DNA from: Bacteroidaceae bacterium
Lineage (GTDB): Bacteria > Bacteroidota > Bacteroidia > Bacteroidales > Bacteroidaceae
Direction of reading: 5' to 3'
DNA: 64,000 nucleotides
NCBI GenBank assembly: GCA_017470425.1
Contig: JAFUYT010000026.1
Location: 54,291 to 118,290 of the forward strand
In this document: positions 23,181 to 64,000 of the stretch, in pieces
How the letters are laid out: each line of letters starts with the position of its first letter
Numbering within the stretch: position 1 is the first letter of the stretch
Position numbers and translations under genes: made by a program
Notes under the pieces: generated by a model
The model's input: only the letters and a program-made list of their open reading frames with translations
What the model was told of the DNA's origin: nothing
Databases searched by the model: none

Positions 23181-23188
23181 TACCTTTG
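23181..23188 (+). promoter_or_regulatory. -7 promoter box TACCTTTG upstream of the surface-structure locus
   Basis: Exact TAnnTTTG match inside the shared 26-nt block. It lies 172 nt upstream of the ATG at 23360. Confidence 0.55.
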
Positions 23189-23359
23189 CAGCGAACAACA
23201 AATAAGGACTAAGAAGACCCTTTCAACTTGACCGCGTGAGCCAGAGCAACGAGGAGGCCAAATGCCTTCCGGTAGTGAGCTACGGACTCCGCGGAAATCG
23301 CGAAACGGGCAACACGATACAAACTAACACCCGAGCCGCACGAAGGCAGAAAGTAGCAG

Positions 23360-24934
23360 ATGAAGAATAGTAGAGGCATACGACTTTTGTGGACGCTGAT
23401 TCTCATGGTGTGGGGATTGCCGGGCTGCTCCTTTGCTCTCGTCAAGGTGGCTCCGCCGCCGGTCGTTGGTGTGTTATTGAGCGGCGATTTGCCGCTGGAC
23501 ACGCTTGGCTTCTACGACCGTTATCCCTTCATCCGTTTTGTGGGCAGTCAGGAGGATGCCAGCCTCGTGCAGCTGAGCGACGACGAGATCCTCGACCAGG
23601 CCGGAAAGGTAGTGTTCCGCGTGAACCGCTACGATGTCTTTACCAACGATTCCCTTTTACATGAACTGGAGACACTCATCTTGCCCCGGATCAACCGGGA
23701 CAGCCTGAGGCTGTGCCGTATCGTGGTGCGTGGTGCCGCGTCGCCCGAGGGTCCTGTGCCCAACAACCGTATGCTCGGACGTCGTCGTGTGGCTACGCTC
23801 ACTAATTTTTTACGCGCGCGTATGAGCGTGCCCGTGGACGAGCGCAACTTTACTACCGAGGCCGTCACCGAGGATTACCGCCTGTTGCTGACCATGATGC
23901 GGCGCGCCGCAGATCCCGACCTCGATGCCGTGCAGCGGCTCTGCAACCGCCACCTGCCCCGCTATGAATACACCCTTCTGAAGCGAGAACTGCAGCGCCT
24001 GCAGGGTGGCCGCCTCTGGCGCCGCCTCCTCAAGGACTACTTCCCCGAGCTGCGTGCAGCGAGGGTGGTGCTGTTCTTCGAAGAAGCTAAGCCCCAGAAG
24101 GAAACACCAGAAGCTATAGAAACGCCAGAAGCTCCAATGATTATAGAAGCTGTGGAAGTTCCGGAAACGCCAGAGCTCCCCCTTGCCCCCCGCGTCCTCA
24201 GCATCCCGCGCCGCGAGCTGCTCTCGGTGAAGACCAACCTGCTGTTGGATTTCGCCTATGTGCCGGGCTACGACCGGTGGTGTCCCATCCCCAACGTGGC
24301 CATCGAGTACTACCCGCTGCGGGGGCACTTCACGTATGGCGCCTCGCTGGACTTCCCCTGGTGGCAGCACTACAGCGACCATAAGTTCTTCCAGATCCGC
24401 AACTACCAGCTGGAGGCCCGCTATTATCTGCGTTCCGGCAGCATCGAGCGTCGCACGCCCGGCGAGGGCGCCGCCTTCCGCGGACTCTACTTCTCTGCCT
24501 ACGCACATGCCGCCCTCTTCGGTATCTGCTTCGATGCAGACCGTGGCTGGGAGGGTGAGGCGCTGGGCGGCGGCCTCGGCGTAGGCTATGTGCTGCCCCT
24601 CGGCCGCAAGGGCCACTGGCGCATGGAGTTCTCCGCGCAGGTCGGCGTCTTCTTCAGCGGCTACGACCCCTATCAGTACGAGAACCCCGTGAACCCCTAC
24701 TACCGCGACGGCCTCTATTACTACAAGTGGACGGGCCGCAAGGCTGACTTCCGCGAGCGTCAGTACCGCTTCACGTGGTTCGGTCCCACCCGCGCGGGCA
24801 TCACCATCTCCTATGACATCCTCTACCGGCGCTGGCGCAAGAAAAGCGAACGGCAGCTCCCCGCCAGCTCCATCGGCACCGAGGGATGGCGCGGCGCCAG
24901 CTTCCGAGACCACGAGCTCGTGGTGGAGGAGTGA
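23360..24934 (+). CDS. Outer-membrane protein of fimbrial loci (OmpA-like ASPEG region plus a DUF3575-like C-terminal beta-barrel region)
   Basis: Signal/lipobox-like N-terminus (LMVWGLPGCS), motif RGAASPEGPVPNNRMLGRRR, a Pro/Glu-rich linker, and an aromatic-rich C-terminal half (LLLDFAYVPG.., YYLRSG, FSAQVGVFFSGY). Family recognition is from memory and is not a search result. Confidence 0.55.
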   Translation: MKNSRGIRLLWTLILMVWGLPGCSFALVKVAPPPVVGVLLSGDLPLDTLGFYDRYPFIRFVGSQEDASLVQLSDDEILDQAGKVVFRVNRYDVFTNDSLLHELETLILPRINRDSLRLCRIVVRGAASPEGPVPNNRMLGRRRVATLTNFLRARMSVPVDERNFTTEAVTEDYRLLLTMMRRAADPDLDAVQRLCNRHLPRYEYTLLKRELQRLQGGRLWRRLLKDYFPELRAARVVLFFEEAKPQKETPEAIETPEAPMIIEAVEVPETPELPLAPRVLSIPRRELLSVKTNLLLDFAYVPGYDRWCPIPNVAIEYYPLRGHFTYGASLDFPWWQHYSDHKFFQIRNYQLEARYYLRSGSIERRTPGEGAAFRGLYFSAYAHAALFGICFDADRGWEGEALGGGLGVGYVLPLGRKGHWRMEFSAQVGVFFSGYDPYQYENPVNPYYRDGLYYYKWTGRKADFRERQYRFTWFGPTRAGITISYDILYRRWRKKSERQLPASSIGTEGWRGASFRDHELVVEE

Positions 24935-25023
24935 GGAATGAAGAATCCTTCGAAATATCGAAATATCGAAATAACGAAATGCCGAAATAACGAAATATCG
25001 AGAATTAAGAATTGAAAACTGAA

Positions 25024-26247
25024 ATGAGATTGAATAGAATCATAGCAAACGTGACAGTACTACTTCAGAGCATCCGTTCTGAAGCACGCCGTTTACTATG
25101 CATTCTTTCCATCTTTCAATTTTTCAGTCTTTCAATTTTATCAACCTCCTGCGAACGCAAGCCGCTGCTCCACCTCTACGACGAGGGCGATGTGTCGCTC
25201 GATCTGCCCATCGTGGATCTCGACCTCCAGGTCTATTGGGACTACGAGATCGGCTACGACATCACCTACGACTGGCGCGCCGAGTGGTACTACGGCTGGG
25301 ACGAGACCGACCAGTCCATCTTCGGTCCCATCGGCTACACCGAGCCCAGCATCTTCGAGCTGCGCCGCTACTACACCGGCGACACACCCCTGGCACCCCA
25401 CAACAGCGTCCTCGCCACCACCATCGCCGGCCACAGCTTCCAAGGGCAGTACGAATGGGGCTTCTGGGACATCCTCGTATGGAACCAGGTCTATACCCTC
25501 GACGGCGTGCAGAGCCTCCACTTCGACGAGGAGAGCACCCTCGACCAGGTCACCGCCTACACCAACCCCTCCATGCACGCCTCCCGCTACCACGCACCCC
25601 GCTACACGCAGGCCTTCTACGAGCCCGAGCCCCTCTTTGCCGCCTACGACCGCGCCATCGAGATCAACCGCAACCTCGACGGCTTCATCTTCGACGAGGA
25701 GCGCAACGTGTGGGTCAAGACACTCGGCATGGAACTCCTCCCCATCACCTATATATACCTCCCGCAGATCATCCTGCACCACAACAACGGGCGCATCACC
25801 TCCGTGCAGGGCGACGGCAACATCTCCGGGATGGCACGCACCACCGTCGTCAACACCGGCCAGGCCGGCCCCGACGCCATCGCCGTCTATTTCCACACCC
25901 GCATGAAGCCGCACTGCGACAAGGCCGGTGAGGATGTCGATATCATCGGCGGGCGCCTCATGACCTTCGGCATCACCAACACCGCCGCCAACCGCATCTC
26001 GCGCGCCGACGACCTCGCGGATGCCAACCGTCACTACCTCGACGTGACGATGCAGTTCAACAACGGCATGGACTCCACCTTCGTCTTCGACGTCACCCGC
26101 CAGGTGCGTCAGCGCTACAAGGGCGGCGTCATCACCGTGGAGCTCGACATGGACACCGTCCCCATCCCCCGCCGCCGCGGCGGCTCCGGCTTCGACGCCG
26201 TCGTCAAGGACTTCGAGGATGGCGGCACACACGAATTTGAAATGTAA
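25024..26247 (+). CDS. Fimbrial-locus lipoprotein (DUF5119 / Mfa2-FimB anchor-like candidate)
   Basis: Lipobox LSILSTSC followed by ERKPLL, typical of these families. It follows a DUF3575-like gene. The track start at 25012 is a TTG, and the ATG at 25024 is preferred. Confidence 0.45.
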   Translation: MRLNRIIANVTVLLQSIRSEARRLLCILSIFQFFSLSILSTSCERKPLLHLYDEGDVSLDLPIVDLDLQVYWDYEIGYDITYDWRAEWYYGWDETDQSIFGPIGYTEPSIFELRRYYTGDTPLAPHNSVLATTIAGHSFQGQYEWGFWDILVWNQVYTLDGVQSLHFDEESTLDQVTAYTNPSMHASRYHAPRYTQAFYEPEPLFAAYDRAIEINRNLDGFIFDEERNVWVKTLGMELLPITYIYLPQIILHHNNGRITSVQGDGNISGMARTTVVNTGQAGPDAIAVYFHTRMKPHCDKAGEDVDIIGGRLMTFGITNTAANRISRADDLADANRHYLDVTMQFNNGMDSTFVFDVTRQVRQRYKGGVITVELDMDTVPIPRRRGGSGFDAVVKDFEDGGTHEFEM

Positions 26248-27583
26248 CTCTCACATAAATTACTCATAAATTAAGCCATAAATTATTCATAAATTAAAAG
26301 TTACATAAATTAGAAGATACACCAAGAGTAAATAATTCATGATCAATTCGTGATTAAATTCATGGATAATTCATGTAAAACATAAAACCTTCTCACACAA
26401 ATTACTCATAAATTAAGCCATAAATTATTCATAAATTAAAAGAAACACTTGAGATAATAATTCATGATCAATTCGTGATTAAATTCATGGATAATTCATG
26501 TAAAACATAAAACCTCTCTCTCACACAAATTACTCGTAAATTTAACCATAAATTACTCATAAATTAAAGATACAAATATATGAACCCTAAGGACTATTCA
26601 GATATTGTGTACAATGTAATTGGCGCAGCCATGAAAGTTCACAGCGAACTGAACTGGGGGCTATTGGAGCCGCTTTATACTGAAGCACTCCACATGGAAC
26701 TGGAAGAATGTGGCATCCCCAACGAAATGGAAGCCCATCTGCCATGCTATTACAAAGACAAGCAGATGAAGAAATCCTACCAACCAGACCTATCTGTCGA
26801 GGGGATCATTATTGAACTGAAATCCACGAGTGACCTGATTCCTGCACACCGGGCACAACTCTTCAACTATATGCGACTGACCAAGTCGCCCATCGGGCTT
26901 CTGATTAACTTCGGAAGAAAAAGCCTTCAAGGCGAACGATATGCCTATTTAGAAGAAACAAACGAATGTGTGCTTCTTGACCGAAACATGAATATGCTCT
27001 ATCCGGCCGACTCTGAACCGGACACCGATGACTATTGGAGATTCATGGAAGAGGAGCAGAGCTACATAAATAATCATTCATGATCCATTCAAGAAAAATA
27101 ATTCATGATCAATTCGTGATTAAATTCATGGATAATTCATGTAAAACATAAAAACTTCTCACACAAATTACTCATAAATTAAGCCATAAATTATTCATAA
27201 ATTAAAAGAAACACTTGAGAAAATAATTCATGATTAATTTGTGATTAAATTCATGGATAATTCATGTAAAACATAAAACCTCTCTCTCACATAAATTACT
27301 CATAAATTAAGCCATAAATTATTCATAAATTAAAAGAAATACTTGAGATAATAATTCATGATCAATTCGTGATAAAATTCATGGATAATTCATGTAAAAC
27401 ATAAAACCTTCTCACAAATTACTCATAAATTAAACCATAAATTATTCATAAATTAAAAGATACACTTGAGAAAATAATTCATGATCAATTCGTGATTAAA
27501 TTCATGGATAATTCATGTAAAACATAAACCTCTCTCTCACATAAATTACTCATAAATTAAGCCATAAATTATTCATAAATTTA
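26248..27583. repeat. AT-rich (about 24% GC) tandem array of 125-128 bp units (one 142 bp), interrupted by the GxxExxY gene
   Basis: Unit starts (TCACA[C/T]AAATTACTC) at 26251, 26393 and 26521, then the gene, then 27159, 27287, 27412 and 27537. Each unit holds 3x CATAAATT-type sub-repeats followed by 4x AATTCATG-type sub-repeats. Confidence 0.9.
26580..27083 (+). CDS. GxxExxY family protein (PD-(D/E)XK-like fold family)
   Basis: Signature GLLEPLYTEAL and a family-typical core (PDLSVEGIIIELKS, AHRAQLFNYMRLT, GLLINFG). 167 aa. Confidence 0.8.
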   Translation: MNPKDYSDIVYNVIGAAMKVHSELNWGLLEPLYTEALHMELEECGIPNEMEAHLPCYYKDKQMKKSYQPDLSVEGIIIELKSTSDLIPAHRAQLFNYMRLTKSPIGLLINFGRKSLQGERYAYLEETNECVLLDRNMNMLYPADSEPDTDDYWRFMEEEQSYINNHS

Positions 27584-27746
27584 ATTTTCCGCGGCCACCG
27601 CGACGACGAACCAGACAGACAACAACGCCCAGCGATTTCCGTGCCTTTGCGCACCCTGACCGCGACATTCCGCGGTCCCGATCAAACCAGATCAAAGTAC
27701 AAAACAATTTTTAATTCATTTATTTATTCACCAAATTCAAATCATT

Positions 27747-29645
27747 ATGAAAACAAAGTATTTTTTCCTCGCAGCCCTCGGCGCCCTCGCGCTGACCAGC
27801 TGCGTCAATGACGAGTTCGTCGGAGCTGACAGCTCGCCGGCCGCTGAGGCTGCTGACGGTGCCATCAACTTCGGATTCAATTTCCAAAATGTCACTCGTG
27901 CTGACCAAGTGGGTGTTGATGCTGCCACCACTCTGCAGAACCAGTTTATCGTCTATGGAACCAAGCATGCTTCCGCTGAAGCAGCTGATGCAAGTAACGA
28001 TGAAGTCGTATTCCAGAACTATGTAGTAGAATATGAGGAAAATTCAGCTGGTCACACGGCATCCAATACTCACAACTGGGAGTATGTTGGAAAGACTCAT
28101 TATGATGCAGCGAAAGTATCCCCAGCTATCACAGGTTCTCAGGCTATTAAGTATTGGGACTACAGTGCAGTTCAGGGTTACACTTTCTACGGAATTGCAT
28201 CAAAGGCTGACATCGCAACTAACAACAAGGTTACTGTTACTAAGACAACCACAGGTACTACCGTTTATGACAAGGGTTATAGTGTTGTGCTGTCTTCTGG
28301 TGCTAATTTGGATCAGTTGTTCGTCGCTGACCGTAAGCCTGTTGCAAAGACAGACTTCAACAAGCCTGTAACGCTGACCTTCCGCAACTTTGGTGCACGT
28401 GTCCGTGTTGGTTTCTATGAGACTATTCCCGGATACACGGTTACTATTAACAAGTTTTATGCAGATGATGATGCAGCTACAGCTATCACATCATTTGCAC
28501 CGATGGCTGACGCTAAGACGACTTTTACGGCTGCCCTGCAAAACATCAGTACAACTCCTACTTCTCCGGCAACAAACACAATGACCGTTTCATATTATGA
28601 TAATACTGATGCTTCTATTGAGAATCATGTTAAATTAACGGCCTCAACTGTTGATTACGATTACAATTTTGCACTTGGAAATGGTGTTGTAGGTTCAGTG
28701 CTGGGAACTTCAGCAGCTTCACCGACATGGGACAACAGCGGCAATTACACCACTGTTTATCCATTTGAGGCAAATACCAACCCCATGCTGATAAAGGTCG
28801 ATTATACTCTAACAGCAGAGGATGGTGCTAGCGAGACTATTGTGGTTCAAGGTGCTAATGTGGTGGTACCCACTCAGTACGTTAAATGGAAGAGCAACTT
28901 TGCCTATACCTATCTTTTCAAGATTAGCGACAACACGAATGGCACGACAGATGGTACGACACAGGGACTCTATCCCATTACCTTTGATGCCGTTACTGTT
29001 GCTGTTGCTGATGATAATACTCAGGAGACAGTTACTACCTTTGAGGATTATTCAGTCACGACCTATGCTAATGGTTCCAAGGTTACAACCAATGATGAAT
29101 ATAAGGCTGGAGAAGATATTTATGTTGTAAAGACCAACAATTCTACGGGTGCTGTTATAGCTCCAACTGCTATTGGAGCGTCAGCTAACAATGCACAAGT
29201 ATATGTTGCTACGACTACTGGTGATGTTATCTCGGAAGCTACAGTTAAGGCTCGTCTCACAGGTTCTCCCAATGGCATTACTTTAACAGCTACGACATCG
29301 GACGAAATCGCTACACTTGTGCAGAATGTTCCTGCTGCAGATGGTACTAATTATGACTTCGGCACTAATGGTGCTGTTAAGTTTACACCTTCACCTGCTG
29401 CAGCCGCTACCTATGTATATGTGTTTACTCGCACGGCTAATGTAGCCCCAGGTTATAATCCTGTTGGTTCTGGTACATATAGTGGTGGCACGACTTACTA
29501 TTTCAAGACTACAGGCGATGTTTATTATCCTGCTGAGGGTATCAATGCAGGAAACTTCGATACCTACAAGGCAAGTCTATATACTCAGACTTCTGCCGGT
29601 ACAGCTGGAGAATATGATATCAAGGTCATAAAGGTTAATCCCTAA
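27747..29645 (+). CDS. Large fimbrillin-like (type V pilin, Mfa1/FimA superfamily) lipoprotein, paralog A
   Basis: Lipobox LALTSC (Cys19), a conserved TRAD site at Arg51, the core motif WKSNFAYTYLFKISDNTNG..GLYPITFDAVTV, and a C-terminal strand EYDIKVIKVNP. It is a paralog of 30308-32242. Confidence 0.65.
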   Translation: MKTKYFFLAALGALALTSCVNDEFVGADSSPAAEAADGAINFGFNFQNVTRADQVGVDAATTLQNQFIVYGTKHASAEAADASNDEVVFQNYVVEYEENSAGHTASNTHNWEYVGKTHYDAAKVSPAITGSQAIKYWDYSAVQGYTFYGIASKADIATNNKVTVTKTTTGTTVYDKGYSVVLSSGANLDQLFVADRKPVAKTDFNKPVTLTFRNFGARVRVGFYETIPGYTVTINKFYADDDAATAITSFAPMADAKTTFTAALQNISTTPTSPATNTMTVSYYDNTDASIENHVKLTASTVDYDYNFALGNGVVGSVLGTSAASPTWDNSGNYTTVYPFEANTNPMLIKVDYTLTAEDGASETIVVQGANVVVPTQYVKWKSNFAYTYLFKISDNTNGTTDGTTQGLYPITFDAVTVAVADDNTQETVTTFEDYSVTTYANGSKVTTNDEYKAGEDIYVVKTNNSTGAVIAPTAIGASANNAQVYVATTTGDVISEATVKARLTGSPNGITLTATTSDEIATLVQNVPAADGTNYDFGTNGAVKFTPSPAAAATYVYVFTRTANVAPGYNPVGSGTYSGGTTYYFKTTGDVYYPAEGINAGNFDTYKASLYTQTSAGTAGEYDIKVIKVNP

Positions 29646-29719
29646 TCACTCCACATCCCCGAATCTATGTCAAAACAGAGCGTATCACTCATGATTTGAC
29701 ACTACGATGAGCAACAGAA

Positions 29720-29749
29720 GCCTACCGAGGTTCGACTCCTCGGTAGGCA
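29720..29749 (+). other. tRNA-like acceptor/T-arm minihelix
   Basis: GCCTACCGAGG-TTCGACT-CCTCGGTAGGC-A: an 11-bp stem capped by a canonical T-loop sequence (TTCGAnT) plus an unpaired A. Confidence 0.5.
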
Positions 29750-29808
29750 ACAAAGAAAAAGACAGCATGAGGCCGGTGCCTCGGAAGAAAGGAATAAAAA
29801 TACACTCG

Positions 29809-30258
29809 ATGAGCAGGAAAGAAGCATTAAAACTGTTTGAAGACAGGAAAGTCCGCGTCGCCTGGGACGACGAACTGGAGAAATGGTATTTCTCCATCGT
29901 GGATGTATGTGGTATTCTTACTGAAAGTAAAGATGCCCTAACCGCTCGTAAGTATTGGAATAAACTGAAGCAGAGACTGAAAGAGGAAGGAAATGAAACG
30001 GTGACAAATTGTCACCAGTTGAAACTTCATGCCGCCGATGGTAAGATGCGTCTCACGGATGTCGCAGACACCGAGCAACTCTTCCGCATCATGACCAATG
30101 TGGAACTCCTGTTAAACTCGCTCGCCGAGGCCTCTGCTACTGAAATCTCCAAGCAAGAGAATCCCAAAGGATTCACTCGTAATGCCGACGTGGCTAAGCG
30201 TGGTGGCCAGGTGGCAAAAGCTGCCCGCAATCAGTTGGAGACTCAACTTGGCCATTAA
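29809..30258 (+). CDS. Bro-N / DinD-like DNA-binding protein, apparently internally shortened
   Basis: N-terminal KVRVAWDDELEKWYFSIVDVCGILTES...KYWNKLKQRLKEEGNETVTNCHQLKLHAADGKMRLTDVADTEQL is typical of Bro-N/DinD-like proteins. The C-terminal tail (LNSLAEASATEISK...AKRGGQVAKAARNQLE) follows directly without the usual middle region. The start at 29809 is preferred over 29707. Confidence 0.5.
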   Translation: MSRKEALKLFEDRKVRVAWDDELEKWYFSIVDVCGILTESKDALTARKYWNKLKQRLKEEGNETVTNCHQLKLHAADGKMRLTDVADTEQLFRIMTNVELLLNSLAEASATEISKQENPKGFTRNADVAKRGGQVAKAARNQLETQLGH

Positions 30259-30307
30259 GCACAGACGATTAATTAATATGAATAACAAATATCAATTTTA
30301 CACAGTT

Positions 30308-32242: not shown

Positions 32243-32253
32243 CACCCAGCTCT

Positions 32254-33575: not shown

Positions 33576-33580
33576 ATGGT

Positions 33581-33646: not shown

Positions 33647-33700
33647 TTGGCCGGGGCGCTGCGGCTGGGCGGGGTGCTGCGGTTGGCCGGGGCGCTGGGG

Positions 33701-35002: not shown

Positions 35003-35061
35003 GACTGCACCCCCTCCCGGCCTCCCCAAGGGGAGGAGAGAGGAAGGTAAAAAGGAAAAGG

Positions 35062-47825: not shown

Positions 47826-47866
47826 CGGCGGAAGAACGGCAGGCGTTGCGTCGCACGTCGCGTCGC

Positions 47867-56800: not shown

Positions 56801-59800
56801 GGACAGGTGTTCGGTGGCGGCAATATGGGTAAGGTGAAGGGCAATGTCTCCATCGAGATTGGCACGGAGACGTCATCAGAGGATATCGGTGTTAACATCA
56901 TCGACGGGGATGACTACCTCAAGCCGGATGGCTCTTCCATCTCGATTGAAGCTGGCATCTATGGCGGCGGCAATGAAGCCGACGTGGATGGCGATGTGGC
57001 GCTCCATATCGGAACAGAGAACCAAAAGATTGATGGCGACCCCTCTGTCACCATCGAAGGCGACATCTTCGGCGGCGGCTATGGTGAGGCGACCACCGTC
57101 ACGGGCAATGTCGAGGTGAATATCGGTAAGGACAATGCAGGAACGCCCGTGGGATACGCCAACATCACCGGCGATGTCTATGGTGGCAGCGCCAAGGGTA
57201 AGGTGAATGCCACGAAGGGCGTGAGCCCAGCCTTCTCCGCAACAGCAGGGAAGGAAACACATGTCAACTTCTATGGCGGCTCCATCACGGGTAACATCTA
57301 TGGTGGCGGTCTGGGCGACAATGTTGGCTCTCATGCCGCCGATGTCTATGGCCCCGTCACGGTGACCGTCGAGGGCGGCAGCGTCACGAATGTCTTTGGC
57401 TGTAACAATGTGCTGGGCTCTCCGAAGAGCACGGCCGCGGTGACCTTCAACGGGGGAACCGTTGCAGAGAATATCTATGGCGGCGGCAAGGATGCTGCCT
57501 ATGATACCGGCGACAGCAGCACCGGCAGCGTCAGCGTGACCCTCAACGGGGGAACCGTTGCGCACGCTGTGTTTGGCGGCGGCCTGGGTGAGACGGCTGT
57601 TGTGAATGGCGCTACGACGGTGACGCTCAACGGGGGCACCGTTGAGAACACTGTCTATGGCGGCGGCAGCCTGGGTGATGTGACCGGGGCTGTCACGGTG
57701 GCTCTCAACGGGGGCACCGTTTCGCACGATGTCTATGGCGGCGGTGCGCTGGCCAGTACCAATACAGAATATACAGCAGGCAGCGCGCCCGCAAATACCT
57801 ATGTAACGAATGTGACGCTGGCAGGCGCCACCGTCACGGGTGACGTCTATGGTGGCGGCTTAGGGCAGTTAGCGGCAGCAGCCGTTCTTTATACCGCAGA
57901 AGACGCGGAAGTCATTGCAGGCACGAAGTCCGTCGGGGACGTGAAGACACCGGCCACGACAGCGGTAGCCGCCAACGTCGGCGGTCCCGTCACGGTGACC
58001 GTCACTAACGGTTCGGCCACGAATGTCTATGGCTGTAACAATGTCAACGGTGCGCCGCAGCAGACGGTGGCTGTCGTCATCGGTACGAAGACGGGCGCAT
58101 CGGCTCCCTACACCTACGGCGGCACGGGCATCATCTCCGGCAGTGTCTATGGCGGCGGCAATGTGGCCGCCTACACGGGCAATCCTACGGTGACGCTCTA
58201 CGGCGGCACCGTCAACACCAATGTCTTTGGTGGTGGTCTCGGTGCTACGGCCATCGTGACGGGCAACACCGCTGTCACCATGGAGGGCGGCACCGTCCGC
58301 AACGACGTCTATGGCGGCGGCAGTCAGGCCGATGTCACGGGCAGCGTGGCTGTCACCATTGCTGGCGGAACTGTCACCAATGATGTCTATGGCGGCGGTG
58401 CGCTGGCCAATACGAACACGGCGAACTGGGATGAGGCAAATCTTTCCACGACGTATGAAAAGATTACGGCCACGCTGACAACTGGTGTCAGTGATGTTGC
58501 TGGACTCTATAAAAAGGATGGCGTTAATTACATCATACAAGGAGCCAATGCAACAGCAGAAGGAGGTGCCGAGTATTACAGACGTTTCGATACGGCTTGG
58601 GCAGAAGGCAAGACTTCAGCCAGCAACACAACTACAGTTATACTCATCGGAGGAACCATCGGCAATGTCTTTGGTGGTGGTCTGGGTAACGATGAGACGC
58701 CTGTATATGTCTATGGCGATGTCACTGTCCATCTTAATAATGCTACCGAGAGAACCACTTATGGTGGCACAGGTGCATCTTTTACGCGAGAGATTGCACA
58801 GAATATTGTTGTTGCAGGTACGAATTACCCAACTATACCTACGACAGGCAAGATCTTTGGAGCTAATAACTTCAATGGTTCGCCTAAGGGCAATGTCACA
58901 GTAGAAATCTGGGCTACAAAACGAGTTGACGGAAAAGCTCATGTCCTCGGCGAATATGAAGTTCATGGCGTCTATGGTGGCGGTAATCTGGCAGACTATT
59001 TACCCGCTACAGCTAAAGAGACGAAGGTGATTATTCATGGTTGTGATGAGACTTCTATTGAGTACGTCTATGGCGGCGGTAATTCTGCTTCTGTACCCTC
59101 TACCGATGTTACAATCTATGGCTCCTTTGATATCGGTTATGCCTTTGGTGGTGGTAATGGTAGTAAGCCCGTTAAGAACAGCGCCGGCACTTGGGTTGCC
59201 AATGGCGGTGCTATGGTGACGGGTGACGCCAATATTTCTGCTCGTGGCGGCAGAATCGGTCAGGTCTTTGGTGGCAGTGATGCAAAGGGCGATATCCTTG
59301 GCAACTCGAATGCCGATATAACGACAACTACAGACCAGGAATGTTCATTGACGCTGACCCGATTCTTCGGAGCTGGTAATGAGGCAAACGTAGCAGGAGA
59401 TGTGAATCTGATTCTCTCCGGATGTGCCTCAGATAATATCCAGTTCGTACACGGAGGCTCTTATAATGCTCATATTACAGGTAATGTGAATCTGACTATT
59501 ACCAGCGGCTACTATACCAATGTCTTTGGTGGCAATGATGCGCGCGGCAGTATTGGCGGGAACATTACGGTCAATATAGAAGAGACGGATGCCTGTAAGC
59601 CTATTGTCATCCAGAATCTTATTGGTGGTGGTAATGAAGCCCCTTATCCTGGCAAGAAGAAAGACGGCACCGAATATTCCGAGCCTGGAAAAGTCACGGT
59701 AAACATCAAGTCGGCTACGCGTATAGACAAAGTCTATGGTGGTGGCTACAAAGCCGATGTTAAAGGTGATACCGAAGTCAATATCAATATGATGAAGGGT

Positions 59801-62800
59801 TCAATGGCAAATACCGAACTGACGCGTCCAGCCAGTTATACGGGAGAAACCATACCCAACGTACATATCACAGAAGGTAAAACATATATTAATGATGCCA
59901 TTGGAACCATTGGCGATGTCTTTGGCGGTGGCAACGAAGGTAATGTCATCGGCAGTACTACCGTAAACATAGGAACAGCTTCTACAATAAAGATTCTGAA
60001 GCGAGTAGGCGGTAACGCTGGCGGAGCCCTTATAGATGCAAGCGACAGACCTGTCTATGATGGAGAAGGCAAGATTATCAAGGATGGTGACGTACCCCGT
60101 ACTGTTGCAGAAGTCGATGCGGATGTTCTTGGCGCGCACATCACAGGCGATGTGTTTGGCGGTGGCAATCTGGCCTATGTTACGGGAAATACTACGGTGA
60201 ATATCAGTACGGTGGATTTGTCCGACAAAGAAGATGTCAAGATAGACTCTGGCAGCGTCTATGGCGGTGGCAGCCAGGCCGACGTACATGGCAATACCAC
60301 GGTGACAATGTCGGGCGGCTACGTCTTCAATGGTATCTTTGGCGGTGGTCTGGCTGGTTCGGTGGGAACGTTCACCAGAGATTATGGGCAAACGATCGAT
60401 GGGTTTGACCACTCTACACATACGTGTATCGGTAAGCCCACCGATTGTGCTGATGGTACGGGTAAATGTACGGTGGTGGTTAACGGCGGCCAGATAGGTC
60501 CCGTGACGGTGGCAACACAGGGTATGACCCGGGCGGCAGCCAGCGGCGGCCCTGTAGCTGAAGGCTGGGTATGGGGCGGCGGCTGTGGTATGATGGAAGA
60601 CCCGGCGGTTGATCCTGACACCCACTTCAAGACCTACGTCGGAAGTACCGATGTCACCATCGGTGGCTCGGCCTTCATCCTGGAGTCCATCATCGGCGGT
60701 GGCGAGTTCGGACGTGTGCTGGGCAATACCTTGGTGAAGATTGAAGGTGGTCAGATAGGCGTAGGAGAAAACTCTCTTGATGGAAGCGGTAATCCTAAGC
60801 CATATTCTGAAGATTTGTGGGAAGCGGCAGCTGCGGCTATCACATCGGGCAATGCTGATGACATTGCAACGGTGGCAGCACAGATGCCCGAATGTTCGCA
60901 TTTCGATTACGGAAGGGACACTAATAGCGACGGCGTAAAAGACGAATTCGTGGTTTACGACCCATACTATGAAGATCCCCAATATGCATCGACACATATC
61001 GGTCCGGCCAGCACTTCCAATCCTTCCGACGGACACACGTGGATAGGCTGCGTGTTCGGCGGCGGCTCCGGCTATATGCCCTACAAGAAGGCAGACGGTA
61101 CCGGCTATGACTGGCACCCCTCTGCAGGTCTGGTAGAAGGAAATACCGAGGTCCGCATCACCGGCGGCCATATCCTGACGAATGTGTATGGCGGCAACGA
61201 ATATACTGACGTGGTGGGTTCCTGTACGGTCACGATGTCTGGTGGCACCATTGGCGTGCCGCGCACACTGCCCCAGATTGCTAACCACCCGGTCACGTGC
61301 TACCTCTTCGGTGGTGGCAAGGGCGACCAGCGTACACATTTCAATAAGATGACGAACGTCGGCAGCACGAATGTCACGGTCAGCGGCGGTATCATCTATG
61401 GCTCAGTCTTCGGCGGTGCCGAGGATGGTCACGTCCTGGGCAACGCTGCTGTCACCATCAGCGGCGGCACCATCGGCACCTGGGGTACCTCCTATGTCGA
61501 TGGCAACGTCTTCGGCGGCGGCCGCGGCTTCTCAGGCGAATCCTTGACAGCCGGTAGCATCGGTGGCAACGTGGATGTCACGATCAGCGGTGGCACGATG
61601 CTCGGCAGCATCTATGGCGGCGGCCGTATGGCGGCCGTGGGCATTGACTTCACCCCAGTTTCTGATCCCTCCTACGGTCAGCTCGTAGATGAAGAAGATG
61701 GTGGCCCGACTCATGGCCATGTCACCGTCAACATCACGGGCGGCACCATCGGCCGGGACTTTGGCACGACTCCGCCAGAGGGTGCCGAACACAGCGGCAA
61801 CGTCTTCGGCGGCAGCATGGGACGTAACACGCTCCTCAACGGTTCAATCAATGAGCTGTGGCCGAAGATTGGTGTGGTGAAGGTGACCGACGTCAGCATC
61901 AGTGGCACTGCCGACATCAAGCGGAGTGTCTATGGCGGCAGTGAGTTTTCCGTCGTGCGCAACCGGGCCACTGTGAATATCTTGGGTGGCACCGTAGGTG
62001 GCAGCGTCTATGGCGGTGGCTACGGCAGCGACGACCACGCAACGAGGACGGTCATCACGGCGGGCGGCTACGCCAGCATCCCCACGATCTATTACACCTT
62101 CACGCCGATGGTGTGGAATGGCTGCGTGTCTGGCAACACCCATGTCAATATCTCCGGCGGCACGGTGAAGAAGAACGTCTATGGCGGCGGCTATCTGGCC
62201 TCCGTGGGCCTCATTAACTTTAACAGCGATGCCGCAGGCAACTTCAACTATGTGAAGAAGCATGAGGACTTGTCGAACAGCTTTGCCCTGAGCTGGCCTT
62301 ACGAACACCAGTACATCGCGGCAGCACCCAACGATGCTGCTTCGGTAGATGGCGGTGCCGGAGTAGAGGGCGCGGGAATCGGCGGCAAGGCCACCGTTAC
62401 TATCACCGGCGGCCACATTGGCGACACGACTGATAACACAACCGGCTATGTCTTCGGCGGCAGCAAGGGTAAGACCATGGAGCGCTATGCCGAGGCTGCC
62501 TGCGCCAACGTGCGTGAGACGGAGGTCAATATCCGCTATTCTTCCACTGCCTCCGATTTGTCTTCTGCTGACTGCATCCAGGGTGCCGTCTATGGTGGTG
62601 GCGAGGACGGTCACGTCTATGAGAATGCCGTTGTCAACATCACTGGCGGTCTCATCGGCATGAGCGTCTATGGCGGCGGAAAGGGTATCACCCCCTATGC
62701 AGGCAAGAAACGGAACACCACCGCTCCCTATGCTGAAGTCGATGCCGAGATCAACAGTTGGACAGCCGGCAAGGTCTATGGCAACGCCACGGTGACGATG

Positions 62801-64000
62801 AGCGGTGGCCACGTCATGCGCAACATCTTCGGTGGCGGCTACTACGCCTCCGTGGGTAAGGGCAACTATGCCGGCGGTGCCGATGACTACTTCACAAGCG
62901 GCTTCGGCGAGACGCTCACCGGCAACCTGTGGACCAGTGAAACGGTGGCTGCCGGTTTGCCCGACAGCGAACGCGACAACGCCTGGCACTTCCTCAACAG
63001 CGGTCTGACCACCGTCACCGTGACGGACGGCACCGTGGGTACGCCCGACGGCACCTACGACGGCAACGCTACCGGGCAGATCTATGGCGGCAGCCGCGGT
63101 GCGGCAGCCATGGACTTAGGCACCACGGAGTTGGGTTCCCATCCCCGTTACGAATTTACCCCTGACTTCTATCTGGGCTATACTAATCAGACCAGTGTCA
63201 CCATCGGTGATGCCGAACACGCTCCCACCATCTATGGCTCTGTCTATGGCGGTGGCCGTGACGGACTGGTGCGCCGCCACGCCCATGTCACCATCAACAA
63301 CGGTACCATCGGACTGGCATACAGCAGTAGTGATGCTTACCGTCGTGACCGCGGCAACGTCTATGGCTCGGGCTCGGGCCTCAGCACATGGGACGGTACG
63401 CACCATGGCACGTCGTCCGGCACCATTGCCTACAACACGACCGTCACCATCAACGGCGGTACCATCCACCAGAATGTCTATGGTGGCGGTGCCATGGCCA
63501 GCGTCGGTCCCCCGCTGTTCGGCGACGACTATGCCAGCAAAGCGCAGTCGCTCTGCACAGTCAACATCAATGGTGGCACCATCGGTTCGACAACAGACCA
63601 CGACACCAATAAATATGGCGGCAATGTCTTCGGCTCCAGCCGAGGTGGCGATTTCGCCGCAGGTGAGTCGCCCGAAGTGCTGGCCACCACGCTCTGGACA
63701 CAGGTCAACGTCAATGGTGGCACCATCGCCGGCAATGTCTATGGCGGTGGTGAGGCTGGTATCGTGCGCAAGAGCGCTGAGGTCAACCTGAAGGGTGGCG
63801 AAATCAAGCACACTGCCTACGGCGGTGGCCAGGGTACGACGGCCATTGCAGCCAATGTGGGCGGCAACACTACCGTGCTGCTGAATCAAGGCGTAGCTGC
63901 CACTGCCAAGGGTTGTATCGTGGATAAAATCTTCGGTTGCAACGACCAGAACGGCACGCCGAAGGGTCATGCCCTCGTACATGTCTATGCCACGCAGAAT
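47867..64000 (+). CDS. Giant secreted surface protein 2 (at least 5378 aa, open at the window end): signal peptide, CHB_HEX_C-like YTxDG(T/S)xPT motifs, GLUG-like repeats, very long YGGG-repeat beta-helix-like region
   Basis: Not in the ORF track because there is no stop. I translated frame 2 by hand from 47822 to 64000 and saw no stop. None of the listed + ORFs in this span is in that frame. MSWAVVSLHTLCAVMMMLCFGTTRAWGQ is a signal-like N-terminus. Other motifs are VRYTVDGTTPTASSP and IYYTLDGTDPTTSTP, then YTGGIVGRL..EVGGIVGYN (GLUG-like, about 51.9-52.1 kb). The exact start is uncertain (in-frame ATGs also at 47711, 47723 and 47774). Confidence 0.8.
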   Translation, partial: MSWAVVSLHTLCAVMMMLCFGTTRAWGQVADGVYYIQYSGNSYYLWPTAPTSSGWPCLTSFSGTDVPETGLDYNFGAFDSSYCTWIVVTDGDYQNIINARYGKYVIWLSNGNAGRNVVLEDNGQDPSTGQTRADATRAQFNITGTGNKVLVKPYTGSNSFNIKGSHYDYITAFQNVVGSNQSLLQFSTSNNEWTFTEHKLAAPTISCPEGTATVTDNVGLPAGYNVRYTVDGTTPTASSPILPVGGYEVSDVCTMKAVIERYGVVLTAVASQEVEPSVRKPGFTLSADGSVTITAETGQTIYYTLDGTDPTTSTPTSATMSKTIPEADVQSATAIKAIAYDSGEDLSSGVATQSLASYNYQIVNRSSAVGVSLSVKRAVGAPLSSYTSIPAAIRSEYISDETVRFYTFGGDFAAANLIEENRITQTPESAANIYVTYTTEHLSEKFLPLTIANSYNIKAGGEYLYYTGSALGTISDAATSKTDNEYIWNITGEDPYNMVLRNIGASQYFRYDGSTRSLNASSQPFILKGTANHATITTGVVAEDVTLRTIDGAELTLKVNTVVLPLSFTLIDKAGKVIKAGITYEGSFALPTAWRSPLVSQYKYYKKYSTLTAGVYAFDEEDRITEVGQRESNVIYVTYDVNDLLDLDGRNLLGAVGKEGGKTYMLKFASGTAFNQENGSDGVMDAARTPVYPYSNGDAHLYVYGEERWQEQLASGASTRARWLWYLEPAGGQLDPYHVRISSYSTQTSYKDTEAGTTTNFHSYLRTYKPEGYASVVTGVTNDNPLAHGGVEGGPADKSDATEYMLIGTSLGSLKLITTSEIDGAPANSVAAYGMRQTVNSFEQYWKNNPTAYNIIKDATGAGVLEGTSVNADLPSDQQAALTAKGWHVYSAWANAADWSSNSKLSKHVGDGKHWFQTVAMGDGSMTFVDTELATMLILLDQHGWEIARVHLPSGPTDPNRAARYREIHKYSSPMVARYHFWKTGSKVPGYHKYKVSDYATVSDVDLTEYTADELGREDITVKAPNLPNYETQAKVGNAERDWYVTYDVKPEYANAYGALPTSAGSASPFLLKQGGKYAKINGTSIDKESSADLENTAYHWFLKPNFEIDEEMGYLYDVEDEGGTPISKDDTNQGYYDDGKAGFDPYNLQIQSVANTARYFTANTSGSTPSSGVWAGTSSAITLENLGTQQAHVMGHDQADMNITNATFMVVDDGNGNMRLMPRFDHGVVMDLFTGLAGQDAKAPEGDDGAADQSLAIELVPKVVHNSSEMGAMGGTYVLASDFTSTAPIGTATNPFVGSIDGQLNPIALSNPLVAYADGAVIKNVIVESATISGGNDEDDVGAICCAATGDTRIYNCGILSGSVSGTRYTGGIVGRLADYSRVINCYSYANITGGSEVGGIVGYNVFASTAANLHTMVMNCMFYGNISGATTVAPVYGGQNINNLKSGGLNTFNYYAYDILKGSTINKYNCALGVEEKFLTRFEFYRQLLNSNHPLAAYYATGSKDNADEMAKWVLETADRSISNPKPYPVLRAKETGRKDPSIINYDITNAPDSVTVGRNHGGKLGKTLSVTISGVGTGAPDGASITAVSPLSLQRTDKDFDRFNFNYDKVQLPYYNDVGTGNYTKNKVVTGWKITGFTGGTAGTYTVGDVWGGYNFADRKSTNKDLYGTGGSNRVFSQGAYFDVPYGVTGITIEPYWGTAAYVSDEYMDVVHDTGYGVENVTQLGHHYGVNKTKVSINGDLQEVHTSISSAVGTLSGATVYDNAVVLVGNVHQGASPSTGATPFTLMSADLDFDNEPDNSLILSHNGRDNGTVSPIRFDFLNVPGIAMAQKPNGATSFRNVSIYKPKGWFEVTNTCNIYFVQFECDNGGKSAAPVILLGGLYDQFVSTQKSNPGTNTSYIHIGGNAWFKDFGNGTHSDGANFTPHIPVSVTGGDFEGFYLSGTYKPDAAVKADNAECYISGGRFIEVAGAAQQQVNGNVQWQIYNADITDFYGGGVNADKPVTGNITIDITGSHVGTFCGGPKFGNMATGKEVTTRAVGCTFDYFFGAGYGGISYNRVRTQDATSPNFSSWQGNYTGNRGKYLSGNKGVATDFDYEFFVWSTGATGGRFYVKYSSLSTAQTKNVSSTLTGCLINRHFYGGGKLGNVDGTATSVLNGCTVEGNVFGGGYSAEHPTVPIRSGGFATVPKIDTNAGVFDMGEMTATEDYTLVAGTLVNNQSAINATAKTIITDVDLNSLGQVTHADLTISGNTIVRGKIFDENGDIIETTGGVFGGGDMSAVNGNTRVDVQNTEDTEGILNVFGGGNTADVVGNTEVFLTAGTVLQDVYGGGKGQTTIVGGDVVVNIGTKTGESAPYTYTGTATVNGSVYGGSAFGAVNTTGGQTVVNLYGCTSVSNVYGGGLGQLATGTPGDPGYVAAIAAQNFGNTSVNMESAAAESATVKFSNVTGAIYGGANVNGVLKQDATVTLLGGTVGTVPGEGERTKDVVFGGGKGEPTLVEGNVTVNIGTKTGEVYAGNATINGSVYGGSALGNTNAESSSSYHTDKTTTVNLFGGTIYGDAYGGGLGQKNSVNGAMSDIVSYVGGDVLVLLDGAKITGNVFGCNNLNGTPKGHVKVWVMRTNNITSNEYKGNSATALSGRTTYDVAAVYGGGNQADYDPTDAHIVLDKEDPKYEEKLANFNGAFAEVLIEGCAETSIQYVYGGGNAAAVPATEITINSCYIIDQVFGGGNGAGTGNPGANVGIYDNNGTPTDYGTGIAKTKLIGGQIHYVYGGSNTLGNVRGGTSLERKESNTCELKIGEIYGAGQVAPMDGDVNIELDCMPEEFVEAVYGGAKNATINGNVSLTVRSGKFGRVFGGNNLGGSINGSITVNAYEGGCDPLIIGELYGGGYNAPYSIYGCNDDDEDGIWTPNAEAGEPHVVQDAEHPAVGVYVWSCTSIGKVFGGGYGATADVVGNTRVWINLQKGRVNEVEQDHIGKIGQVFGGGNMGKVKGNVSIEIGTETSSEDIGVNIIDGDDYLKPDGSSISIEAGIYGGGNEADVDGDVALHIGTENQKIDGDPSVTIEGDIFGGGYGEATTVTGNVEVNIGKDNAGTPVGYANITGDVYGGSAKGKVNATKGVSPAFSATAGKETHVNFYGGSITGNIYGGGLGDNVGSHAADVYGPVTVTVEGGSVTNVFGCNNVLGSPKSTAAVTFNGGTVAENIYGGGKDAAYDTGDSSTGSVSVTLNGGTVAHAVFGGGLGETAVVNGATTVTLNGGTVENTVYGGGSLGDVTGAVTVALNGGTVSHDVYGGGALASTNTEYTAGSAPANTYVTNVTLAGATVTGDVYGGGLGQLAAAAVLYTAEDAEVIAGTKSVGDVKTPATTAVAANVGGPVTVTVTNGSATNVYGCNNVNGAPQQTVAVVIGTKTGASAPYTYGGTGIISGSVYGGGNVAAYTGNPTVTLYGGTVNTNVFGGGLGATAIVTGNTAVTMEGGTVRNDVYGGGSQADVTGSVAVTIAGGTVTNDVYGGGALANTNTANWDEANLSTTYEKITATLTTGVSDVAGLYKKDGVNYIIQGANATAEGGAEYYRRFDTAWAEGKTSASNTTTVILIGGTIGNVFGGGLGNDETPVYVYGDVTVHLNNATERTTYGGTGASFTREIAQNIVVAGTNYPTIPTTGKIFGANNFNGSPKGNVTVEIWATKRVDGKAHVLGEYEVHGVYGGGNLADYLPATAKETKVIIHGCDETSIEYVYGGGNSASVPSTDVTIYGSFDIGYAFGGGNGSKPVKNSAGTWVANGGAMVTGDANISARGGRIGQVFGGSDAKGDILGNSNADITTTTDQECSLTLTRFFGAGNEANVAGDVNLILSGCASDNIQFVHGGSYNAHITGNVNLTITSGYYTNVFGGNDARGSIGGNITVNIEETDACKPIVIQNLIGGGNEAPYPGKKKDGTEYSEPGKVTVNIKSATRIDKVYGGGYKADVKGDTEVNINMMKGSMANTELTRPASYTGETIPNVHITEGKTYINDAIGTIGDVFGGGNEGNVIGSTTVNIGTASTIKILKRVGGNAGGALIDASDRPVYDGEGKIIKDGDVPRTVAEVDADVLGAHITGDVFGGGNLAYVTGNTTVNISTVDLSDKEDVKIDSGSVYGGGSQADVHGNTTVTMSGGYVFNGIFGGGLAGSVGTFTRDYGQTIDGFDHSTHTCIGKPTDCADGTGKCTVVVNGGQIGPVTVATQGMTRAAASGGPVAEGWVWGGGCGMMEDPAVDPDTHFKTYVGSTDVTIGGSAFILESIIGGGEFGRVLGNTLVKIEGGQIGVGENSLDGSGNPKPYSEDLWEAAAAAITSGNADDIATVAAQMPECSHFDYGRDTNSDGVKDEFVVYDPYYEDPQYASTHIGPASTSNPSDGHTWIGCVFGGGSGYMPYKKADGTGYDWHPSAGLVEGNTEVRITGGHILTNVYGGNEYTDVVGSCTVTMSGGTIGVPRTLPQIANHPVTCYLFGGGKGDQRTHFNKMTNVGSTNVTVSGGIIYGSVFGGAEDGHVLGNAAVTISGGTIGTWGTSYVDGNVFGGGRGFSGESLTAGSIGGNVDVTISGGTMLGSIYGGGRMAAVGIDFTPVSDPSYGQLVDEEDGGPTHGHVTVNITGGTIGRDFGTTPPEGAEHSGNVFGGSMGRNTLLNGSINELWPKIGVVKVTDVSISGTADIKRSVYGGSEFSVVRNRATVNILGGTVGGSVYGGGYGSDDHATRTVITAGGYASIPTIYYTFTPMVWNGCVSGNTHVNISGGTVKKNVYGGGYLASVGLINFNSDAAGNFNYVKKHEDLSNSFALSWPYEHQYIAAAPNDAASVDGGAGVEGAGIGGKATVTITGGHIGDTTDNTTGYVFGGSKGKTMERYAEAACANVRETEVNIRYSSTASDLSSADCIQGAVYGGGEDGHVYENAVVNITGGLIGMSVYGGGKGITPYAGKKRNTTAPYAEVDAEINSWTAGKVYGNATVTMSGGHVMRNIFGGGYYASVGKGNYAGGADDYFTSGFGETLTGNLWTSETVAAGLPDSERDNAWHFLNSGLTTVTVTDGTVGTPDGTYDGNATGQIYGGSRGAAAMDLGTTELGSHPRYEFTPDFYLGYTNQTSVTIGDAEHAPTIYGSVYGGGRDGLVRRHAHVTINNGTIGLAYSSSDAYRRDRGNVYGSGSGLSTWDGTHHGTSSGTIAYNTTVTINGGTIHQNVYGGGAMASVGPPLFGDDYASKAQSLCTVNINGGTIGSTTDHDTNKYGGNVFGSSRGGDFAAGESPEVLATTLWTQVNVNGGTIAGNVYGGGEAGIVRKSAEVNLKGGEIKHTAYGGGQGTTAIAANVGGNTTVLLNQGVAATAKGCIVDKIFGCNDQNGTPKGHALVHVYATQN

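Follow-up and report, generated by a model that had tools for sequence, protein, structure and literature searches.

We analyzed a 64,000-nucleotide stretch of contig JAFUYT010000026.1 from a Bacteroidaceae bacterium (hereafter the window) and found that it carries a cluster, conserved in Prevotella-like rumen bacteria, in which type V pilus-like genes are joined to genes for giant proteins and which probably builds very large surface fibres. We lean slightly toward the reading that this is a chromosomal locus of ruminant-gut Prevotellaceae and Bacteroidales in which genes for a pilus or anchor of type V (Mfa/FimA-like) stand together with genes for giant surface proteins. Its genes follow the order DUF3575 protein, DUF5119 protein, one to four fimbrillins of ~600 amino acids (aa), a fimbrillin of ~400 aa, the lipoprotein that we call H, a protein of ~4,000 aa, and a second giant. 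In the window, the plus strand carries ten genes in series, from position 23360 to the window end at 64000. A preliminary inspection made without database searches (hereafter the sequence-only reading) had counted eleven genes on this strand, and its sizes for the two giants, 4165 aa and at least 5378 aa, were exact. The genes and the domains recognized within the giants are as follows.

Gene A, 23360-24934, plus strand: outer-membrane protein of 524 aa with a C-terminal DUF3575 beta-barrel (Pfam PF12099, E 6.7e-14).
Gene B, 25012-26247, plus strand: DUF5119-family lipoprotein, lipobox LSTSC; candidate anchor subunit.
Gene C, 26580-27083, plus strand: GxxExxY / PD-(D/E)XK_3 protein (TIGR04256, 2.7e-35; PF13366, 1.2e-32).
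Gene D, 27747-29645, plus strand: fimbrillin-like lipoprotein of 632 aa, lipobox LTSC, in a low-GC cassette.
Gene E, 29707-30258, plus strand: small open reading frame (ORF) with a Bro-N match (PF02498) at 22 bits, where the gathering score of 25.6 is not reached.
Gene F, 30308-32242, plus strand: fimbrillin-like lipoprotein of 644 aa, lipobox MASC; paralogue of D.
Gene G, 32346-33575, plus strand: fimbrillin (Mfa_like_1, PF13149) lipoprotein of 409 aa, lipobox LAAC.
Gene H, 33569-35002, plus strand: lipoprotein, lipobox LVGC, with no Pfam model and a predicted type V pilin fold.
Giant 1 ORF, 34999-47700, plus strand: 4233 aa, or 4165 aa from the probable start ATG at 35203.
Conserved C-module of giant 1, 44098-47442, plus strand: ~1100 aa.
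C-terminal beta-sandwich of giant 1, 47443-47697, plus strand: type IX secretion system (T9SS) type A sorting domain by homology.
Giant 2 open frame, 47711-64000, plus strand, running off the window: at least 5429 aa, or at least 5378 aa from 'MSWAVV'.
CHB_HEX_C_1 / Fn3_assoc domain of giant 2, 48710-48925 (aa 334-405), plus strand: PF13290, 3.5e-10; PF13287, 3.1e-12.
GLUG motif of giant 2, 51965-52048 (near aa 1420), plus strand: PF07581, 8.8e-07.
Gly-rich repeat region of giant 2, 53849-64000 (from ~aa 2050), plus strand: VYGGG..A.V.G.T.V type, 53 motif matches.

Three of these genes have probable starts within their frames, each leading into a signal peptide. That of H lies at ~33730, immediately ahead of LGLLGLIGLVGLVGC; the second start of giant 1, 'MTKAAG' (ATG 35203), gives MTKAAGLWGLLWLLLLWPLGLAAQ; and that of giant 2, at 47864, gives MSWAVVSLHTLCAVMMMLCFGTTRAWG. 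Lipoprotein signal peptides with a lipobox Cys were read from the translations of B, D, F, G, and H.

To evaluate the conservation of the cluster, an alignment of H was scanned against one genome per species (about 185,000 species), which returned 67 loci. All are in metagenome-assembled genomes (MAGs) from cattle, sheep, goat, yak, buffalo, or deer that are labeled Prevotella, Prevotellaceae, Bacteroidaceae, or Bacteroidales, and their H proteins are 28-59% identical to that of the window. Giant 1 was found next to H, colinear from N- to C-terminus, in all 63 loci with downstream DNA (tblastn), and in 61 of the 63 its frame opens 0-230 bp after H and continues unbroken for ~3,300 codons to the fetched end. 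A synteny survey of this kind had been proposed by the sequence-only reading, and the linkage between the pilin genes and giant 1 was kept in those 61 of 63 related loci. G and D/F-like genes lie upstream of H in 45 loci and, where the flank is long enough, B precedes them in 28 loci and A in 20. Overall, gene order was retained in 65 of 67 loci. The window matches a ruminant-gut metagenome scaffold in ENA, and the locus proteins recur on nine contigs from independent samples.

In ~18 more distant loci, H and the giant are retained with other genes upstream. One of these (L057) comprises, in order, a DUF3575 protein with an OmpA domain, three unassigned proteins, a protein that matches P_gingi_FimA (2.1e-05), H, and the giant; this distant version follows the same logic with other parts. 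The metagenomic contig L079 encodes, in order, an Mfa_like_1 protein, H, and two giants, the first of 4251 aa and the second of at least 7,197 aa; L080 and L081 are similar. Candidates for giants without pilins, found near phage or insertion sequence (IS) genes, proved to be fragments or insertion-disrupted genes; they were rejected because they lack signal peptides and their matches are internal to giant 1.

Mobile DNA was observed as insertions within or beside the giant genes of several relatives. In L005 (1-9900) it comprises genes for a VapE-like primase, a DNA polymerase A, and a single-stranded DNA-binding protein, and in L008 (5200-9960) an ISL3 transposase adjoins McrBC. VapE-like and HU-HIG genes lie between giants 1 and 2 in L080 (16790-22010). 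A gene of 417-461 aa occupies the same interval in L006 (15967-17220) and L079 (16768-18153), where the two copies are 52% identical; judged by eye, its N-terminus resembles a REP-associated or IS200-like tyrosine transposase. It is absent from the window.

Giant 1 comprises N-terminal repeats (about aa 92-1900), a middle part, the conserved C-module, and the C-terminal sorting domain, and no Pfam, NCBIfam, or PDB sequence match to it was found. Its Gly-rich N-terminal repeats (QIKVGGSIYGGGN...) are weakly similar to those of giant 2. When the last 1,232 aa were used as the query, at least 212 homologs were recovered with 41-66% identity over full coverage, and 408 clusters at 50% identity were collected when 1.84 billion representative proteins were searched exhaustively. 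This search newly returned 79 relatives of at least 3000 aa (median 3,921, maximum 4,699), in all of which the module is C-terminal. An AlphaFold2 model of the C-terminal 1,200 residues had a predicted local distance difference test (pLDDT) score of 80 and a predicted template modeling (pTM) score of 0.73. Foldseek found no PDB match to the C-module model at E <= 1e-3; rows for alphavirus E2 were set aside as noise (TM 0.05). The last ~85 residues form a strand-rich beta-sandwich in the model, with local Foldseek matches to Ig-like sandwiches.

The homologs of giant 1 indicate how it may leave the cell. TIGR04183 (T9SS type A) matches 30 of 35 homologous giant-1 tails (best 2.3e-08), to which the tail in the window is 27-57% identical, and a profile of the C-terminal domain built from the family is found at the very end of 77 of the 79 full-length relatives. 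We consider the T9SS a probable export route for giant 1, well supported by homology, although the tail in the window falls below the threshold of the T9SS models. The sequence-only reading had proposed two T9SS-exported giant adhesins. The proposal is supported at the family level for giant 1, on the counts just given, but not for giant 2; it is backed for one protein at most, because the homologs of giant 2 end without a sorting domain.

H is the pilin-like gene that immediately precedes giant 1, and it was recognized by its predicted structure. A search of H and 63 orthologs against Pfam gave no fimbrillin-clan match, and one member hit Exotox-A_bind (E 1.6e-4). At least 1201 database proteins belong to the H family, and almost none of them has a precomputed Pfam domain. 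An AlphaFold2 model of H built from 121 sequences reached pLDDT 84.8 and pTM 0.82, and the top 26 matches of this model in a Foldseek search of the PDB were all Bacteroidales type V pilins (probability 0.93-1.0). The best match was BF1858 (3t2l; E 3.6e-09), followed by BF1861, BVU_2522, and PG0181; Mfa4, FimA, Mfa2, and Mfa3 were also among the matches. TM-scores were low (0.2-0.48), as is expected of hinged two-domain proteins. The model thus predicts that H, the only lipoprotein of the cluster that was modeled, has a two-domain, all-beta type V pilin fold. The model places a disordered loop after an N-terminal strand; this loop ends at the Arg of TRAWxPP, a residue (R73) that is nearly invariant among the 121 homologs. 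The conserved C-terminal tail, PTYLYMLSEPDLNNPT, is disordered (low pLDDT) in the monomer model, which fits the expectation for a donor strand.

The remaining lipoproteins were assigned to families by sequence. G reaches the gathering score of Mfa_like_1 (27.7 bits against 27), and among 45 G orthologs this family is matched in six (best 1.3e-12) and Mfa_like_2 in 11. D and F share 38% identity and are each related to G (E 1e-12 and 1e-14, respectively); in hhalign, a D/F profile of 62 homologs aligned with a G profile of 45 at a probability of 100% (E 1.8e-44). D, F, and G share the motif W.P.Y.YTY.FKI, which is invariant in the 62 and 45 homologs. D carries a WKxNxxYTYxFKI motif and, at residues 50-51, a TR|A motif; T50 and R51 are invariant across the 62 D/F homologs, and G has VTRA. 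The sequence-only reading had described four lipoproteins sharing W.P.Y.YTY.FKI. D, F, G, and H are indeed lipoproteins, but this motif is confined to D, F, and G and is absent from H, whose C-terminus is conserved but unlike that of the other three. D/F-like genes number from one to four among related loci.

By family assignment, D, F, and G are pilin-like. Their conserved Arg motifs, like the Arg and the tail of H, are consistent with pilins, and all four may be cleaved after the Arg and polymerize by strand exchange, a sequence of events that is established for FimA and Mfa1 (PMC8512630). The type V pilin-like character attributed to the lipoproteins by the sequence-only reading is borne out by the match of G to Mfa_like_1, by the homology of D and F to G, and, for H, by the fold predicted with AlphaFold and Foldseek. 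Of the other family names that it had offered, DUF3575 and GxxExxY were recovered by model matches and DUF5119 at the level of the family, but the Bro-N match stayed below threshold. The copy of B in the window scores 20 bits against DUF5119 (gathering score 27), and 24 of 24 orthologs match (best 8.4e-08). B lacks the TR|A motif; DUF5119 is a family that we take to be related to fimbrillins.

Giant 2 comprises, in order, a Sec-type signal peptide, a CHB_HEX_C_1/Fn3_assoc module, a GLUG/M26_N-like stretch, and VYGGG-type repeats. CHB_HEX_C_1 and GLUG, both suspected from the letters alone, were thus confirmed by hidden Markov model searches, and Pfam, NCBIfam, and PDB searches gave nothing beyond CHB_HEX_C_1, Fn3_assoc, and GLUG. 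When the GLUG segment was scored alone, it matched Peptidase_M26_N below threshold (0.023) and ZmpB (1.6e-4); no M26 catalytic domain was detected. A beta-helical form of the giant repeats is presumed from the [YF]GGG-type motif. Giant 2 follows giant 1 in eight of nine visible contexts, with homologs in this position in L004, L005, L006, L009, L078, L079, and L080. The homolog in L079 (ERZ28613020 scaffold_1028, 18168-26729) is called at no fewer than 7,197 aa and is still open where its contig stops; the family may include some of the largest proteins of bacteria.

The window ends before the C-terminus of giant 2 is reached, and the homolog search returned no same-species fragment that covers it. 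Homologs run 400-700 aa past the point where the window ends and stop within the repeat (...GNVYGGGNAADVTGETNVVIGKEKVE), with unrelated genes next. The profile of the giant-1 C-terminal domain matched none of 120 giant 2 homologs, and no short internal sorting domain was found in giant 2 of the window. Proteins of the giant 2 type therefore appear to lack an outer-membrane export signal.

Several relatives encode the giant 2 region in more than one gene, and each of these genes has a signal peptide of its own; a CHB_HEX protein of 750-1,320 aa comes first and is followed by one or two repeat giants. Separate CHB_HEX_C_1 proteins are encoded in L004 (7499-9838), L005 (13689-17663), and L006 (17413-19659). 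By eye, the C-terminus of the separate protein (TGI...WYTLDGRxLxGKPxKxGLYIxNGKKxxIK) resembles T9SS domains of the 'short' type reported in P. intermedia (PMC11969387). In the window, the CHB_HEX module is fused into giant 2 and this short T9SS-like tail is absent. This pattern of fusion and fission, and the likeness between the repeats that close giant 2 and those that open giant 1, lead us to speculate that the giants associate.

By analogy with Mfa1-5 of Porphyromonas gingivalis, the parts could act together as follows. The pilins would leave the cell as lipoproteins, be cleaved on the C-terminal side of the conserved Arg in TR|A, and join by strand exchange on an anchor, for which B and the barrel protein A are candidates. 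Giant 1 would pass the outer membrane via the T9SS, and H would hold it at the surface or at the pilus tip, as Mfa3 and Mfa4 hold Mfa5. Giant 2 may bind giant 1, possibly via the like repeats at the C-terminus of the former and the N-terminus of the latter, and this association would lengthen the fibre and display a head of the carbohydrate-binding type for adhesion in the rumen. A bolder version, which we regard as rather unlikely, is that H represents a new class of pilin that couples T9SS cargo to a pilus or anchor and that the giants are joined end to end via their repeats into fibres of ~10,000 residues or more, with giant 2 either hitch-hiking on giant 1 or using an undescribed route.

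Several observations weigh against the preferred reading, that of a pilus or anchor set combined with giant surface proteins. Profile comparison found no relation of H to G or B, and the profiles of H, G, B, and D/F, like that of the giant-1 C-terminal domain, matched no PDB sequences. In the window, the giant-1 tail hits none of the T9SS models, even with the cutoff relaxed to E <= 5, and neither a T9SS gene nor a gene for a gingipain-type protease occurs within the 64-kb window. Homologs of giant 2 have no sorting domain that would account for its export. No vWA domain was found on giant 1 or giant 2 with Pfam or NCBIfam, and the cluster is broken up by two long repeat-filled gaps and by a block of foreign composition (genes C-F; see below). 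Finally, both the beta-helical nature of the repeats and the adhesive function are inferred.

Another explanation, which we consider doubtful, is that the pilin-like genes form an anchor or secretion-accessory module rather than a pilus, i.e., a non-polymerizing platform that exports or tethers the giant, as SprF does for SprB. Such a platform would be in keeping with the fact that, of the lipoproteins, H alone accompanies giant 1 without exception, the other pilins having been swapped in the ~18 distant loci. In addition, many Bacteroidales lipoproteins with a pilin fold are not known as filament formers (e.g., PG1881), and the DUF3575 gene sometimes has an OmpA peptidoglycan-binding domain. 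However, D, F, G, and H retain the TR|A motif that is typical of pilins processed before polymerization, the variation of D/F-like genes from one to four copies is what would be expected of stalk or tip variants, and neither a PorP/SprF-type gene nor a type B C-terminal domain was found. It is also conceivable, if quite improbable, that a standard type V pilus operon merely lies beside independent and unrelated giant genes. The pairing of H with giant 1 in 63 of 63 loci, despite H identities of 28-59% and two versions of the upstream cluster, and the opening of the giant frame 0-230 bp after H both argue against chance adjacency. What can be said for it is that H and giant 1 each have a leader element of their own and that mobile elements have inserted into the locus of some relatives without destroying it; a scan for sigma-70 promoters and terminators favored neither side.

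The long Gly-rich repeats and very large size of the giants also recall contact-dependent toxins or polymorphic effectors of the CdiA/FHA type, carried on a beta-helical stalk. This is very improbable: the last 1,200 aa of giant 1 are conserved at 41-66% identity across species rather than polymorphic, neither a toxin domain (Pfam) nor an immunity-type gene was detected, and the genes downstream of giant 2 homologs are housekeeping genes. The chance that the locus is an artefact, whether a mis-assembled metagenomic contig or decaying pseudogenes that leave spurious long ORFs in GC-rich DNA, is close to negligible. The window does come from a metagenome assembly, GC-rich DNA does yield many long spurious ORFs in other frames, and several database homologs are fragmentary. 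Nevertheless, the same proteins occur on nine contigs from independent samples, frames of at least 3,300 aa are unbroken in 61 of 63 independent MAGs, 79 representative homologs exceed or equal 3000 aa, and the conserved regions yield confident structure predictions.

The features of composition, repeats, and regulation that surround the genes are as follows, where GC3 denotes GC content at third codon positions.

Bacteroidetes-type -7 box TACCTTTG (TAnnTTTG), 23181-23188, plus strand: 172 nt 5' of gene A.
AT-rich tandem repeat, 26254-26568, no strand assigned: ~125-bp unit, 2.1 copies, upstream of gene C.
Same AT-rich repeat, 27095-27581, no strand assigned: ~128-bp unit, 3.9 copies, downstream of gene C.
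66-nt leader element with a GC hairpin, 33581-33646, plus strand: ahead of the real H start and followed by 18-nt GC-rich tandem repeats.
Second copy of the 66-nt leader element, 35062-35127, plus strand: 94% identical, ahead of the real start of giant 1.
GC3 of genes A, B, G, H, and giant 1: 0.78-0.85.
GC3 of genes C, D, E, and F (window 26250-32250): 0.38-0.54.
GC3 of giant 2: 0.68.

The sequence-only reading had placed the genes, separated by short gaps, behind one promoter-like box. The box was located at 23181-23188 and is the sole plus-strand match to TAnnTTTG between the preceding gene and A; across the window the pattern is not enriched (18 observed versus 13 expected). It lies within the right arm of an imperfect inverted repeat of 48 nt (22754-22801 / 23158-23205), the arms of which are 73% complementary and 356 nt apart. 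A CT-rich low-complexity tract occupies ~22850-22970, between the arms. An invertible promoter at this repeat is not claimed, because complementarity is only 73% and no comparable repeats were found upstream of gene A in 12 relatives. The gaps are short except for those between B and C (332 bp) and between C and D (663 bp), both of which are filled with AT-rich tandem repeats. The copies of this repeat around gene C match at 90-92%. The A-B gap (77 bp) contains an 8-bp tandem repeat, TCGAAATA, present in 6.5 copies at 24950-25001.

Genes C to F stand out in composition, with GC3 of 0.53 in C and 0.38 in D as compared to ~0.8 in flanking genes. L018 and L028 have counterparts of D with 70% identity, but their flanking genes reach only 48-67%. 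The low GC3 of C to F and the greater similarity of D relative to flanking genes suggest that this block is a pilin cassette that was recently exchanged by horizontal transfer. No homolog of gene C was matched by tblastn in the 67 related loci, and homologs of gene E sit between D/F-like genes in L021, L048, and L055 only. Therefore, gene C is probably a passenger outside the system, and gene E is provisionally treated as one as well. A perfect hairpin at the start of gene E (29720-29748; 11-bp stem, 7-nt loop; GCCTACCGAGGTTCGACTCCTCGGTAGGC) resembles a tRNA T-arm; ARAGORN called no tRNA there, and the hairpin may mark a former integration site.

The 66-nt leader element was absent from the 67 related loci and occurs in same-species contigs only. 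GC-rich tandem repeats with units of 18-28 nt follow the leader elements at 33631-33715, 33920-33971, and 35124-35216. Ahead of the locus, window positions 1-22600 carry genes for RecQ, ClpX, trigger factor, an ABC ATPase, ValRS, and MazG, as well as for Cys/Met PLP enzymes, DAHP synthase/chorismate mutase, an aminotransferase, and prephenate dehydratase, together with tRNA-Met (9139-9212, minus strand) and tRNA-Ser (11642-11727, plus strand). Since this upstream 22 kb is housekeeping DNA, the locus is chromosomal.

Prevotellaceae dominate the rumen, yet little is understood of their attachment to feed particles and other microbes. The locus described here is present in at least 67 species-level genomes and devotes 30-40 kb to surface proteins that are all annotated as hypothetical. 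If the giant fibre reading is true, the locus would constitute a second, much larger, and widespread case of cross-talk between type V pili and type IX secretion, and would bear on attachment of rumen Prevotellaceae. It offers several handles for further work, including H as a dedicated partner with a predicted pilin fold, a confidently modeled module of 1,100 aa that resembles no PDB structure, and a giant protein with homologs that carry a Sec signal but no recognizable outer-membrane export signal. Family models could be built both for H, with at least 1,201 members, and for giant 1, with at least 408 clusters at 50% identity.

The sequence-only reading had considered the architecture undescribed, and the literature that we searched, the coverage of which was incomplete, contains no account of giant proteins coupled to pilin clusters in either Prevotella or the Bacteroidales of the rumen; this agrees with that view as a weak negative. 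Among known systems, the streptococcal M26 / ZmpB proteins resemble giant 2 in its short GLUG/M26_N-like stretch, and M26_N matches were also found in giant 2 homologs; however, the similarity is confined to the non-catalytic region. SprB of Flavobacterium johnsoniae comprises ~6,500 aa, has a type B C-terminal domain, and is encoded next to the PorP-like SprF; it serves gliding motility, and neither SprB nor RemA is known to be linked to pilin genes. In contrast, the domain of giant 1 is, by homology, of type A, and no NCBIfam match to TIGR04131 or PorP/SprF was found on the giants (E <= 0.1) or on genes A to H (E <= 0.01). Like the putative surface giants described here, SprB and RemA are very large and repeat-rich, and they are exported by the T9SS (PMC5445135), the route proposed for giant 1.

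The type V pilus operons of gut Bacteroides supply the best structural matches of H (BF1858, 3t2l; BF1861, 3sy6; BVU_2522, 4qb7; BACOVA_04980/04982) and likewise encode lipoprotein precursors. DUF3575 genes lie near fimbrillin genes in these organisms too, as in a gene table of B. thetaiotaomicron. No giant T9SS cargo is known from these operons, and many gut Bacteroides are not known to have a T9SS.

The closest parallel is with mfa1-5 of P. gingivalis. Both loci encode lipoprotein pilins of the FimA/Mfa fold with an anchor-type subunit (here a candidate), and in both the accessory pilins directly precede a large non-pilin gene with a Sec signal and a T9SS domain, which for giant 1 is assigned from its homologs. 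A second giant gene follows here, and in some P. gingivalis strains the large gene occurs as a tandem duplicate. Mfa5 is the sole non-pilin component of Mfa1-5; it combines a vWA domain with a T9SS C-terminal domain, requires the T9SS and PorU, and resides at the pilus tip, where it is needed, with Mfa3 and Mfa4, and its length is very variable and its gene is tandemly duplicated in some strains (PMC8512630; PMC5445135). Mfa5 comprises ~1,000-1,200 aa with a vWA domain, whereas giant 1, about four times as large, comprises ~4,200 aa with no vWA domain, a Gly-rich N-terminus, and a novel C-module of 1,100 aa. No match to giant 1 was found among PDB sequences, which cover the N-terminal structure of Mfa5. 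The cluster described here also differs from mfa1-5 in its second giant of at least 5,400 aa, whose homologs lack a C-terminal sorting domain, in opening with a DUF3575 barrel and a DUF5119 protein, in having stalk-like genes of ~600 aa in one to four copies, and in H, a pilin family without a sequence model. The sequence-only reading had suggested an expanded version of the mfa/Mfa5 logic. This holds insofar as giant 1 occupies the position of Mfa5 in the mfa operon, but it does not extend to homology; judged by their domains, neither giant is a homolog of Mfa5, because neither has a vWA domain. The locus would generalize Mfa5 of P. gingivalis, the single studied case of a T9SS cargo within a type V pilus and, as compared at the level of sequence, it is an expanded analog of the logic of mfa1-5.

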